Below are positions 43,921-53,045 of a DNA stretch of 64,000 nt, piece after piece. A program made the position numbers and the translations under genes. The first letter of the stretch is position 1. Each line of letters opens with the position of its first letter. The stretch is taken from contig CAWELD010000010.1 in NCBI GenBank assembly GCA_963809895.1, positions 1,152,001-1,216,000 on the forward strand, written 5' to 3'. The notes below the pieces were generated by a model, which was not told the DNA's origin, made no database searches, and saw only the letters and a list, made by a program, of their open reading frames with translations. Source of the DNA: an uncultured Gemmatimonadales bacterium. GTDB lineage: Bacteria; Gemmatimonadota; Gemmatimonadetes; Longimicrobiales; Gaopeijiaceae.

Positions 43921-43956
43921 ACGTTCGTATCATACACGATGCGAGCGGGGCGTCAA
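43919..43956 (-). promoter_or_regulatory. sigma70-like promoter with overlapping palindromic operator for the tetR efflux operon
   Basis: TTGACG (43956-43951), 16 nt, TATGAT (43934-43929), then 8 nt to the ATG; palindrome ATACG-TT-CGTAT at 43919-43930. Confidence 0.6.
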
Positions 43957-44300
43957 GGGGGCGGCGGGGGCGGCGTTGGGGGGGGCCGGGTGGGCGGTGA
44001 GGTGGGTGCCGGGTGGTGAGGCGGGTGGCCGGACGGTGGGCGGGTGGCCGGGTGGGCGGCGGTGGGGTGGGGTGGTTGGGCGCCTGGGCCGGCGGAGGGG
44101 TGGCGGGCGGGTGGCCCGACGGTTGGGCGGGTGGTCGTGGAGGGGCGGGCCCGAGACCGCATGGGGTGGATGGTTGGACGGGCGGGTGCCGGGTGGCGGG
44201 CGGGTAGAGGTGGCCGCCTGTCTGGCGCGGCGCCCCTTCGGCGATCGGTCGCAGGTTGGCTGGTTACCGTATGGCGGTGGGTCACGGTCGGGCGCCGGGC
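43957..44300 (+). repeat. G-rich low-complexity tract
   Basis: Dense GGG/GGGTGG/GCGGGTGG runs with very few A; translations in all frames are low-complexity. Confidence 0.75.
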
Positions 44301-44615
44301 GAGGAGCCGGGCGGCGGGCCGGTCGTTGACGGGCGGTGGCGCGGCCGGCGGGTGCCGACAACTCCGCAAGCGCCGGCCGTTTGGGAGAGCTCGCGGCCCT
44401 GGCGGCGATTATCGCGGCGGATCGCGCAAGCGCCGGCGGGCGTCCGGGGCCGTGCAGCCTTTGCCGCAACTATTGCCGCGAATCCTGCGAGCGAGCGCCG
44501 ACAAGGGGGTCCTTGCAGGCCTGACGGCGATCTCAGCGTCCCTGGGGCGACCCAGGGTCGCGGTGGGGGCGCCACGCAGCCCTGGGCCCGGCGCCTTTTC
44601 GGCTACCCGCGGTCC

Positions 44616-44820
44616 GATGGGCCGTCGACATGTTCGCCCGGGGCCGGCCATGCGCGGATGGGCCGCCGACATGTTCGCCCGGGCGCGGCCATGCGCGGAT
44701 GGGTCGCCGACATGTTCGCCCGGGCGCGGCCATGCGCGGATAGGCCGCCGACATGGTCGCCTGGGCGGGGCCATGCGCAGACGGGCCGCAGACATGATCA
44801 CCCGGGCGCGGCCAGGCCCC
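44616..44820. repeat. Five tandem copies of a 41-bp unit
   Basis: Consensus GATGGGCCGCCGACATGTTCGCCCGGGCGCGGCCATGCGCG; copies start at 44616, 44657, 44698, 44739 and 44780 with no spacers. Confidence 0.92.
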
Positions 44821-44942
44821 ACGGGCCGCCGCCTCAGGAGCCGGCCCGCCACCTCACGCCCCGGCGCCCACCGCATCGTGCACTGGCACCCGCCGCCTCA
44901 TGGCCCGGCCCAATCCGCATCGCTAGCTGCGGCGCCGCCACC

Positions 44943-45895: not shown

Positions 45896-46477
45896 ATGGC
45901 AAGCACTCCGTCCACCATGTCCCGGCTGGGCACGACCGCCCCGGCCTTCGCCCTACCGGATCCCGTGACCGGTGAGACCGTCTCCCTCGACGATTTCGCC
46001 GAGGCGCCGGCGCTCCTCGTGGTCTTCATCTCCAACCACTGCCCGTACGTGAAGCACATTCGCCAGGGGCTGGCTGCCTTCGGCCGTGACTATCAGGCCC
46101 GGGGCCTGGCCATGGTGGCCATCAACGCCAACGACGTCGACCGCTATCCGGACGACGCGCCGGACAAGATGGCCGACGAGGCGCGCACGCACGGGTACAC
46201 GTTTCCGTACCTGTTCGACGAGACCCAGGAGGTCGCCCGCGCCTACCGCGCCGCGTGCACGCCGGACTTCTTCCTGTTCGACGGCGACCGGCGCCTCGTC
46301 TACCGGGGCCAGTTCGACGCCAGCCGGCCAGGCAACGGCGTGCCGGTGACGGGTGAGGATCTACGGAAGGCTGCGGACGCGGTTCTGGAGGGCGGAAGCC
46401 CTTCGGACGACCAGCATCCCTCGGTCGGCTGCAACATCAAGTGGAAGCCGGGGAACGAGCCGGACTACTTCGGCTGA
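45896..46477 (+). CDS. Thioredoxin-fold redoxin (AhpC/TSA-like)
   Basis: APAFALPD, SNHCPYV, FPYLFDETQ.VA..Y.AACTPDFF, SVGCNIKW. Confidence 0.92.
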   Translation: MASTPSTMSRLGTTAPAFALPDPVTGETVSLDDFAEAPALLVVFISNHCPYVKHIRQGLAAFGRDYQARGLAMVAINANDVDRYPDDAPDKMADEARTHGYTFPYLFDETQEVARAYRAACTPDFFLFDGDRRLVYRGQFDASRPGNGVPVTGEDLRKAADAVLEGGSPSDDQHPSVGCNIKWKPGNEPDYFG

Positions 46478-46581
46478 GACGGGGAGTCGCTGGCGAGGAG
46501 CGCGCCGGGGGCGCCCGGCTGCCGCCGCGCCACGCTCGCCCCCGCCCGTCCCCGGCCTGCCGCGGAATCCCCTGAAATGAC

Positions 46582-46618
46582 GGAGGCCACCGGTGCCCGT
46601 CAGACACCGATGGCCTCC
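46582..46618 (-). terminator. Terminator-like hairpin
   Basis: Minus strand GGAGGCCATCGGTG / CACCGGTGGCCTCC (14 bp, one U-G pair), followed by a weak tail GTCATTTC. Confidence 0.55.
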
Positions 46619-46685
46619 TTCTGCTGTCCGGACCTGGCGCGAACGCCACTACCCGGCGCGAACAGCCTGATCGACGATGCTCGAC

Positions 46686-46748
46686 TTAGTAGCCGAAGCG
46701 GCGATCGCTTGCCCGTGCCAGGTCGGACAGGGTACTCGGACTAGACAA
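46686..46748 (-). CDS. Candidate 20-aa small ORF MSSPSTLSDLARASDRRFGY
   Basis: TTG start 6 nt after GGAGGT; TAA stop at 46688-46686. Confidence 0.4.
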   Translation of the reverse strand: MSSPSTLSDLARASDRRFGY

Positions 46749-46874
46749 GGGATCACCTCCTTTTTGCGGGGAAACATCGGGCACCACACCGGAAGGCTCA
46801 GAGCCTTCGGTCCGGGACCGGCGCCCTCGGGACGCCGGGATCCACGGCCCAGGCCGCCGCATGCGACCGACGAG

Positions 46875-46904
46875 AACCTACACGACATCCCCCGTCGGGT
46901 TCAA
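46875..46904 (-). promoter_or_regulatory. Candidate sigma70-like promoter for the small RNA
   Basis: TTGAAC (46904-46899), 18 nt, TAGGTT (46880-46875). Confidence 0.35.
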
Positions 46905-46957
46905 CACCCTTCCAGTGTGGTCCCGCTCGAACGCAACGGGACCTTTGCGCCGCTGCA

Positions 46958-47629
46958 CTAGAGATTCTGCCACGTTCGCCGCAGCAGAAGCCCGCAGACC
47001 ACCAGCGCCACCGCGATCCACAGGATTCCCCAGAAGAGCGTGGGGATGCCCGTGAGCTGGGCCAGCATGGCGGCGTCGGACTGCAGGCCGGGCCGGTCCA
47101 GGATGTCGCTCTTGATGTCGAGGACGGCGTAGAGGCAGGAGGTGAGTCCCAACGCCATGAGGATGCGGGCGCTCCACACCGAGGGCATGCGGCGGCCGGA
47201 CCACAGCAGCGTGCCGCCGAACGCCAGCCCGAACACCACCCCGAACAGGTTGCGGATGTAGAGCGCGGTCAGGACCAGCACCGCGCCTCCCACCAGCGAC
47301 AGCAGGAGACCGGGTCGCGCGCGCTTGGACTGGGATCCCAGGGCGAGCAGCGATCCCAGCACGAGGCTGCCGAGATAGCCGGCCGACAAGGTCAGGAACG
47401 GAATCCCCCCGGTGCCCATGGTGACCCCACCCTCCGCCGGATCCAGCATGATGTGGCCCACCTTGCCGCCGGTGGCCACGATCATGAGGGCGTGGCTCGT
47501 CTCGTGGAGGAGCACCACGAAGATCTTCAGCGGATAGATGACCGGGGTGTACCAGAGGTACCAGACGGCGATGAAGTAGGCGCCGAACCCCAGCAGAAAG
47601 CGCAGGCGCTTCTGTGTCGAGGGTTTCAT
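46958..47629 (-). CDS. M50 family membrane metallopeptidase (M50B-like)
   Basis: HETSH in a TM context, SAGYLG, SDA..LA. Confidence 0.85.
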   Translation of the reverse strand: MKPSTQKRLRFLLGFGAYFIAVWYLWYTPVIYPLKIFVVLLHETSHALMIVATGGKVGHIMLDPAEGGVTMGTGGIPFLTLSAGYLGSLVLGSLLALGSQSKRARPGLLLSLVGGAVLVLTALYIRNLFGVVFGLAFGGTLLWSGRRMPSVWSARILMALGLTSCLYAVLDIKSDILDRPGLQSDAAMLAQLTGIPTLFWGILWIAVALVVCGLLLRRTWQNL

Positions 47630-51466: not shown

Positions 51467-53045
51467 CTACGGAATGGGCGTCCGGGGCATGGTGAGCAGA
51501 GCCGCGTAGAGATCCACCGCGTACCAGAGGTTCGCCAGGCGCAGGTTCTCGTCCGGGGCGTGCTGGTTGTCGTCGTGATTCGCCACCGGGACGATGAGCG
51601 CCGGCTTTCCCATGGTCTGCGTGAAGAGGTAGAGCGGCAGCGAACCGCCCAGCGCCGGCACCAGCAGCAGATCATCGCCGGCCACCACGCGCGCCGCCGC
51701 CACGACCTCCTGCGCCACCGGCGTGTCCATGGGCGTCCGCGCCGCAGGGTAGCCCACGCCGCGAGTCACCTTGACGATCTTGGGATAGCGCAGTCGCGTC
51801 TCCCGATCCGGGTCCTCGCGCACGATGTGGAATCCCTGCCCCCGGATGTGCGCTTCCACGAGATCCAGCATGTGCTCGGGGTCGTTCCCCTTCACGAGCC
51901 GGAGCCCCAACGACGCCTCGGCGGTGGAGGGGATCACGTTCCGCGCCAGCGCACCCACGTTGCCACTGGCCAGCCCCTTCACCGTCAGCGAGGGCAGGAG
52001 CAGGCGCTCCGCCAGTGTTTCCGGCTCGCCCTCGGTGCGGGCCAGGCCCAGCTCCTCCTTGAGTGCGGCGTCGTAGCTCGGCAGCGCGTCCAGCGCGGCG
52101 CGCTCCTGGGGCCCGATGGGGTCGACGGTGTCGTAGAAGCCGTCGATGAGGACCTTGCCCGTGTCGCCGTCCTTCATGCTCGCGAGGAGGTCCGCCAGAA
52201 GCTGGCCGGGCACCGGCGCCCAGTTGCCGTAGTGCCCGCTGTGCAGGGAGCGCATCGGTCCGTAGACGGTGAGGGCCATCCCGGTCACCCCGCGTACGCC
52301 GAAGGTGATCTGGGGACGTCCGCTCTGGTGCACCGGCCCGTCGAAGAAGAGCCACACGTCGATGGGATCCAGGGCGCTCGCGGTGCGCGGCGAGGTAGTC
52401 CCCGAGGTGGCTGGAGCCCGCTTCCTCTTCGCCCTCGAAGAAGAACACCAGGTTCGAGGTGGGGATGATGTCGTGCTCGCGGAACGCGCGCAGCACCGGG
52501 AAGAGCGCGCCCAGGGGGGCCTTGTCGTCGCCGGCAGAGCGGGCGTAGATGCGCCACTCCGGATCGACCTCGTCGCCGTCGGCGGGGAAGGGAATGGGCG
52601 TCGCCCCCTCCTCCATGGACCCGTCGTAGAGCGTGGGTTCCCAGGGGGCGTGGGTCCAGTTCGTGGGATCCGCCGGCTGGCCGTCGTAGTGCACGTAGAG
52701 CCCCAGCGTGCGCGTCGCCCCCGGCACCTTCAACTCACCGAACACGGCCGGTGGCGCGCCGGGCAGCGTCCAGACCTCGGAGCGAACGCCCATCGCCTCG
52801 AGGCGAGCGGCCAGCGTGTCGGCGTTCACCCGTATGCCGACGGAGTCGGACGCCACGTTGGGCAGGGACAGCAGCCGGGCGAACTCCCGCAGCACGGCCG
52901 GCGCGTGGGCCGTCCGGTAGTCCCGGACCGCGTCGACGGCGGCGGCCTGCTGCGCCGAGGCGGGCCGGGGTGCCAGGGCCAGCCCGCACAGCGCGGCCAG
53001 GAGGACGGGCAACCACGAGACGGACGGACGACGTTCCACGGACAT
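51467..53045 (-). CDS. M20/M25/M40 metallopeptidase, with +1 frameshift near 52373
   Basis: N-part HYDGQP, RSAGDDK, EGEEEAGS; C-part LHSGHYGN, NQHAPDEN in another frame. Removing one C from GAGCGCCCTGGAT joins them. Confidence 0.88.

Follow-up and report, generated by a model that had tools for sequence, protein, structure and literature searches.

A free-standing small RNA gene in Gemmatimonadota with an extended Shine-Dalgarno site is a distinct relative of the rre mini-mRNAs

Why would a bacterium place an almost complete complement of its 16S rRNA tail in front of an open reading frame of only 20 codons, in a gap between two protein genes? The locus that raises this question lies on the minus strand of a 64,000-nucleotide stretch of DNA (referred to here as the window) from an uncultured Gemmatimonadales bacterium. 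An earlier note, made from the letters alone, had proposed an unannotated structured transcript with a promoter, hairpins, a Shine-Dalgarno site, a TTG-initiated frame and a terminal hairpin. All of these are present on the minus strand, and our data confirm that the element is a real, free-standing small RNA gene. It fills the gap between an M50B-like peptidase gene (ending at 46958) and a convergent AhpC/TSA gene (ending at 46477), its region folds more stably than dinucleotide shuffles (z = -4.14 and -4.21), and the overlapping 79-aa and 94-aa ORFs match no Pfam family. Its parts are as follows.

46899 to 46904, minus strand: -35 hexamer TTGAAC of a sigma-70-type promoter, assigned from the sequence and the conserved promoter pattern
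46875 to 46880, minus strand: -10 hexamer TAGGTT, 18 nt from the -35 hexamer, assigned in the same way
46818 to 46838, minus strand: leader hairpin 1, private to the window copy (pattern in 1 of 86 homologs)
46788 to 46813, minus strand: leader hairpin 2 (the hairpin named at 46808-46792), with a similar hairpin in 13 of 86 homologs
46779 to 46782, minus strand: conserved 5' GCCC, the 5' end of the shortest homologs, near-invariant in alignments A1-A3
46750 to 46763, minus strand: extended Shine-Dalgarno site AAAGGAGGTGATCC, 14 nt complementary to the genome's own 16S 3' tail
46686 to 46748, minus strand: 20-codon frame, TTG at 46748, stop at 46688-46686 in the loop of P3
46717 to 46730, minus strand: 5' strand of the long-range helix P1; its first base is base 19 of the frame
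46700 to 46714, minus strand: switch segment, which pairs as P0 with the Shine-Dalgarno site and start codon or sits in the P1 bulge and P2
46714 to 46711, minus strand: GGGC, possible pseudoknot partner of the 5' GCCC by complementarity
46679 to 46699, minus strand: hairpin P3, whose loop holds the stop codon, with two-sided changes in 3 of 5 pairs
46655 to 46666, minus strand: alternative partner of the P1 3' strand, in a local 3' hairpin with a UUCG loop when the frame is unpaired
46648 to 46635, minus strand: UUCG hairpin, absent from the predicted full-length fold and present in the alternative fold
46624 to 46647, minus strand: 3' strands of P2 and P1, the final part transcribed ahead of the terminator
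46574 to 46618, minus strand: 14-bp terminal hairpin (46618-46582) with a weak T tail, a putative intrinsic terminator facing the convergent AhpC/TSA gene

Transcription probably starts near 46868, so the RNA would measure about 295 nt. The conserved core begins at about 46782, with the leader hairpins as lineage-specific extras. A consensus scanner run over 46300-47100 called neither a promoter nor a terminator in the window copy, where the T tail is weak, so the assignment of both rests on conservation.

A DNA search of 41 genomes from the genus, family and order found the element in 38 of them, with its own genome included in the count. A covariance model built from 34 homologs matched 59 of 151 genomes of the phylum, with one match each, and this count is a lower bound since the model misses short forms that a pattern search found. 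The matches fall in 15 of 16 genomes of the element's own family and in two other families of the class (26 of 71 and 8 of 31), while none of the 19 genomes from three more distant families matched. One genome (G025), flagged as unpublished, appears in both tallies, as a miss in the DNA search and a match with the model, and stays outside the alignment and structure claims. The model scored 69-117 bits on three Gemmatimonadota loci and at most 23 bits on 78 proteobacterial loci. For comparative work we reduced 91 loci to 86 distinct homologs, the other five being repeats of a genome or sequence; each row was required to hold the site, a start codon, GGG(C/A) 20-45 nt on and a frame of fewer than 30 codons. 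The homologs are kin, and counts over them overstate independence. We also observed a short form in Gemmatimonadota (L360, L361, L363, L366, L377, L378 and L379), which has 11 codons in about 130 nt and is missed by model R1; it is without the 5' GCCC and keeps a segment that can pair with either the binding site or a 3' strand. Outside cellular genomes, none of at least 119 viral stretches found with a loose pattern showed the layout among the matches listed with a frame below 45 codons, and plasmids gave 15 weak matches, none with coverage above 31%.

The neighbourhood of the element is variable. The M50B-like peptidase (46958-47629 in the window, minus strand) is upstream in 31 of the 86 homolog loci and the convergent AhpC/TSA protein (45896-46477, plus strand) is downstream in 20, while 51 loci have neither within the flanks examined. 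Orientation of the downstream ORF (48 on the same strand, 36 opposite, 2 short) was set aside as a crude heuristic in GC-rich DNA. Elsewhere in the window, a peptidase-like gene at 51467-53045 (minus strand) lies in two overlapping frames (ORFs of 457 and 296 aa), possibly through a frameshift or sequencing error, and about 1 kb of very GC-rich, repetitive-looking DNA with only low-complexity ORFs (43930-44900) sits between a TetR-family gene and a periplasmic binding protein gene.

Is the element transcribed on its own? A loose promoter pattern occurs within 200 nt upstream in 67 of the 86 homologs compared to 8 of 920 control windows, and a strict pattern in 19 compared to 0. In 24 of the 67 promoter-matching homologs the -10 box ends 30-35 nt before AGGAGG, so that the shortest RNAs would begin a few bases ahead of the conserved GCCC. 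A terminal hairpin was called in 85 of 86 homologs, and 8 of its 12 counted pairs show two-sided change. Given the promoter pattern and the covarying hairpin, the RNA appears to stand alone with its own promoter and terminator. Four metatranscriptome runs, each from a different study, also yielded homologs in the form of short contigs. Among the 32 contig pieces listed of 77 in all, 15 align to 46653-46853 (137-275 nt, mostly unlike each other), and one contig of run X1 is identical to 46738-46853. These contigs give no strand, ends or level, and the libraries may contain DNA; they support expression of the element family, short of proof for the window copy. The M50B gene (47015-47617) had no contig cover in the four runs, a lack that is uninformative. 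Overall, the stand-alone, conserved and structured transcript unit first suggested by the sequence is borne out by homologs, promoter pattern, fold and covariation.

The pairing capacity that drew attention to the locus also holds. The 14-mer has two copies in the 5.3-Mb genome, one in the element and one closing the 16S gene, and only the first of these falls in the window. Against the genome's own 16S gene, 14 nt match with a mismatch on either side, which leaves nearly the whole free 16S tail paired. The 14-mer equals the reverse strand of the 16S gene end, as would be expected of an rRNA gene remnant or a chance strong site. The match stops after 14 nt, however, no Rfam rRNA family matches in the window, and the element is conserved as a single-copy, covarying unit; this rules out such an origin, to which we assign a negligible probability.

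We then asked of the alignment whether conservation acts on the peptide or on the RNA. The frame reaches its stop at 14-22 codons in 86 of 86 homologs, compared to 13 and 2 of 86 for the other two frames, and it opens with TTG in 82, GTG in 3 and ATG in 1. Start codon and GGGC are 34 nt apart in 71 rows, 37 nt in 9, 31 nt in 3 and 33 nt in 1; since 83 of 84 rows have 31, 34 or 37 nt, length changes come in threes. Upstream, GCCC lies 16-21 nt before AGGAGG in 82 of 84 rows. Over codons 2-16 (the 71 of 86 rows with standard spacing) pN/pS is 1.09. In codons 12-16 third positions vary no more than first positions; codon 12 encodes either Arg or Trp, and L037 and L212 each have a 1-nt deletion that alters the peptide tail. 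Codons 13-17 encode a near-constant ASDR(R) stretch, and the peptide is polar, not hydrophobic. What is conserved is translation; the peptide sequence largely follows the RNA and is not itself under selection.

The RNA contains helices that compete for the same bases. P1/P2 is a long-range helix running from mid-frame to the strand before the terminator. P1 is paired in 88% of alignment cells and shows two-sided change in 7 of 14 pairs; in 34 of 34 homologs the native 3' strand is a better partner for the 5' strand than the average of the 3' strands taken from the others. With P3 and the terminator, it covaries. An 8-nt bulge in P1 holds the GGGC complementary to the 5' GCCC, making a pseudoknot possible. 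Its four pairs are near-invariant, and among the homologs they show a pair-keeping C-to-T change in two rows and no two-sided covariation. The second helix, P0, is predicted to form 14 bp between 46714-46700 and the site with its start codon, and it is mutually exclusive with P1/P2. The P0 duplex has a mean energy of -20.9 kcal/mol compared to -13.3 kcal/mol for shuffles, exceeds 57 of 60 shuffles in 73 of 86 homologs, and uses the best of three windows in 81 of 86. It is paired in 89% of cells; two-sided change is found in just 2 of 15 pairs because both strands are near-invariant.

Minimum-energy folds of the growing transcript, a length series from the window copy alone, contain P0 while the RNA is about 195-225 nt long and P1/P2 once it is complete. 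The predicted cost of opening the site in the window copy is 13.6 kcal/mol for the RNA up to the stop codon, 5.7 at full length and 10.1 with the 3' part shuffled; the corresponding homolog medians are 11.5, 8.4 and 10.5 kcal/mol. Full-length cost is below the shuffled mean in 63 of 85 homologs and higher in 12, in a comparison with 8 shuffles each and automatic terminator calls that leaves the pseudoknot unscored and drops the one homolog with no terminator called. An alternative 3' hairpin with a UUCG loop is predicted when the frame is blocked and takes the P1 3' strand; its covariation is weak (own partner better in 22 of 34; 75% of cells paired).

The earlier note recognized no known family in the element, and this view is unsupported, since the layout matches the small rre mRNAs published by Hahn et al. 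(PMC5711450). In that paper, rreB (Bradyrhizobiaceae) and rreR (Rhodobacterales) are small mRNAs with an extended Shine-Dalgarno site, and rre genes are reported from four alphaproteobacterial orders only. The rreB RNA is 165 nt long, opens its frame with GTG and has 17 complementary bases; it co-sediments with 30S subunits, its translation is weak, and changing its start codon to a stop stabilises it. Like rreB and rreR, the element is a free-standing gene with its own promoter and terminator, a site complementary to the 16S tail that runs on to the start codon, a non-ATG start with TCT common as second codon, a frame of 14-25 codons without peptide likeness between lineages, and a predicted helix that masks the site.

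Set against what marks an rre gene, the element has its site directly upstream of a small non-ATG frame (TTG 2 nt after the 14-mer, 20 codons), is a stand-alone transcript as judged from the promoter pattern in 67 of 86 homologs and the covarying terminal hairpin, and is predicted to mask the site and start in a conserved helix (beyond shuffles in 73 of 86, with weak covariation). It falls short in the perfect 16S complementarity of at least 16 nt: its 14 nt end one base before the start codon, whereas rre genes have 16-17 nt. It also differs in its TTG rather than GTG start and in its masking segment, which lies 34-48 nt into the frame and not directly after the start. The conserved 5' GCCC and internal GGGC are both present in 84 of 86 homologs compared to 2 of 112 in the proteobacterial set, with the GGGC count partly a product of the row criteria, which demand GGG(C/A). 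Lastly, the element is found in Gemmatimonadota, while the rre paper names only Alphaproteobacteria. The element is therefore a Gemmatimonadota relative of the published rre mini-mRNAs and a distinct variant. Our search of the literature, with subscription papers largely outside it, found no account of a Gemmatimonadota rre form or of rre follow-up work.

A genome pattern scan returned at least 120 loci (L221-L340), almost all from Alphaproteobacteria, with the site before short frames, and TCT is the second codon in nearly all of them. Among the matches listed these include Sphingomonadales, Acetobacteraceae, Hyphomicrobiales and Rhodobacterales and at least two Gammaproteobacteria (L231, L279), and 109 of 112 scored frames have 14-31 codons. 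In Azospirillum (L270, L296) the site opens frames of 59-60 codons that resemble secreted small proteins. In rreB, as in both the short and long Gemmatimonadota forms, there is a similar short masking motif. One rreB-type locus (L391, 1502-1650) has 14 codons, lies beside a tRNA gene and contains an 8-bp long-range helix overlapping the masking segment; this helix is a possible unmasking fold, one not discussed in the accessible part of PMC5711450.

Rfam places none of this family at its threshold within the window: no family reached its gathering cut-off, and ARAGORN called nothing in the window or in 19 homolog loci. The best weak match was CC2171 (RF01867; 19 bits against a cut-off of 75, E 0.082), whose cut-off was passed in 0 of 4 genomes. 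The rreB-type loci reach 44 bits with CC2171, likewise under 75, and 6 of 20 tested loci from L221-L340 pass, among the matches listed, so Rfam covers the class poorly. CC2171 is a Caulobacter sRNA that is expressed in Methylorubrum by Northern blot, according to 10.1101/2022.01.24.477521. It resembles the element in its extended site, start codon, TCT and long-range helix closed just before the terminator, and its members hold frames of 18-27 codons; its long helix begins inside the ribosome footprint, unlike P1 of the element. The two covariance models do not cross-match past the binding site. Two of three viral contigs with a CC2171-type start (L219, 601-722; L220, 601-697) end inside the RNA gene, shortly past the 21-codon frame, and the gene may serve as a prophage integration site. 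Two other classes were discarded. A leader-peptide attenuator was rejected because the downstream gene is convergent in the window genome and at 20 of 86 loci and because the terminator takes part in neither predicted state. The Rhodopirellula-1 motif is a different RNA (PMC2864571).

What, then, might the element do? We propose a translation-coupled RNA switch whose function resides in the RNA rather than in the peptide and whose purpose is inferred; we place this reading a little below an even chance. An RNA of 200-300 nt would be made from its own promoter, whose conservation is documented above and whose start site is deduced. While only the 5' half exists, the segment at codons 12-17 would pair back on the Shine-Dalgarno site and start codon, so that ribosomes would not load during transcription. 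Once the 3' strand is made, P1/P2, whose P1 part covaries, is predicted to capture the masking segment and free the site, and pairing of the 5' GCCC with the P1 bulge may form a pseudoknot. By analogy with rreB, a 30S subunit would then dock through the 14-bp duplex with the 16S tail, and initiation would be slow, owing to the TTG codon and to P1 lying just past the 30S footprint; slow initiation was measured in rreB. A ribosome reading the frame would unwind P1/P2, after which the RNA might refold into the masked state or be degraded, as may be suggested by rreB decay, which requires a start codon. The frame would thus be a track for the ribosome on which peptide sequence matters little, and the state or amount of the RNA would report how readily idle ribosomes start.

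The steps of this switch are folding predictions. An rreB derivative whose complementarity was cut to 14 bases was largely free of ribosomes (PMC5711450), which speaks against the switch; that derivative had lost the 5' part of the match, a part that the element keeps. Two rreB-type loci, from 2 of 101 genomes, show a predicted drop in opening cost as in the element. Despite their agreement, a switch universal across rre-type RNAs is not supported by the predictions, because the wider alphaproteobacterial set has no general unmasking (43 loci lower and 43 higher among 102 scored).

Instead of switching, the full-length RNA might simply hold 30S subunits by the 16S tail, with the frame as a release track only, whether for storage, for protection of the tail or as a check of 3'-end maturation. 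Pairing over nearly the whole free tail, a poor start codon in 85 of 86 homologs (82 TTG, 3 GTG), an open state in which some 45 nt separate GCCC from P1, as much as an initiation complex spans, and the assembly of many different homologs from environmental RNA would all fit, as would the report that rreB is mostly ribosome-bound. Yet in the same paper (PMC5711450) 20-fold overproduction of rreB left growth unaltered, ribosomes far outnumber rreB and its half-life is about 10 min, and the contigs give no RNA levels for the element. By analogy, these growth data weaken the earlier suggestion of a ribosome-sequestering RNA, of which the capacity to bind the 16S tail stands and simple sequestration does not fare well; we consider such holding rather unlikely. 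Less probable again, and in our view quite unlikely, is a trans-acting sRNA that base-pairs with other RNAs through its purine-rich site or 3' domain, while translation only sets its lifetime. Its own promoter and terminator, its variable neighbours, a convergent downstream gene in the window genome and at 20 of 86 homolog loci and conservation at the nucleotide level are in keeping with this idea, but the conserved bases are already explained by the 16S tail and the internal helices.

The peptide could still be the product that matters, with the folds only rationing a small bioactive peptide. In type I toxin mRNAs such as hok and aapA, metastable folds mask the ribosome-binding site, and folding order controls access to that site there as it is predicted to in the element. 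The kept frame and length and the near-constant ASDR(R) stretch agree with such rationing. The finished element RNA is predicted to be open, however, its polar peptide is not selected as a protein, and no antitoxin RNA has been identified for it, in contrast to hok and aapA. Further against this explanation are the pN/pS of 1.09 with third codon positions as fixed as first, the deletions in L037 and L212 that change the peptide tail, and the dissimilarity of alphaproteobacterial peptides among themselves; RreB and RreR are unstructured and extra RreB was without growth effect, according to PMC5711450. We regard a tightly rationed peptide mRNA as unlikely. The earlier note's highly expressed micropeptide is likewise unsupported, given the TTG start in 82 of 86 homologs, the pN/pS value and the weak translation of rreB through such a site (PMC5711450).

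Returning to the switch, a bolder version may be considered, in which rre-type RNAs gauge ribosomes across phyla, with the Gemmatimonadota form acting as a one-shot latch. The site loop, closed by the GCCC/GGGC pseudoknot, would ring the neck of the 30S subunit or initiating 70S ribosome and would be reset only by a ribosome that reads the frame and unwinds the latch. We think this improbable; if true, the latch would be an mRNA that serves as a device for parking or sensing ribosomes.

The rre genes have been without an assigned function since 2016. A single-copy version in a second phylum, with the frame kept and the peptide unselected, moves the question from the role of the peptide to that of the RNA on the ribosome. 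For in vitro tests, exact mutations can be designed in the covarying helix and the masking segment. If the switch holds, the element would be an mRNA-like molecule that holds or gauges ribosomes by a new mechanism.
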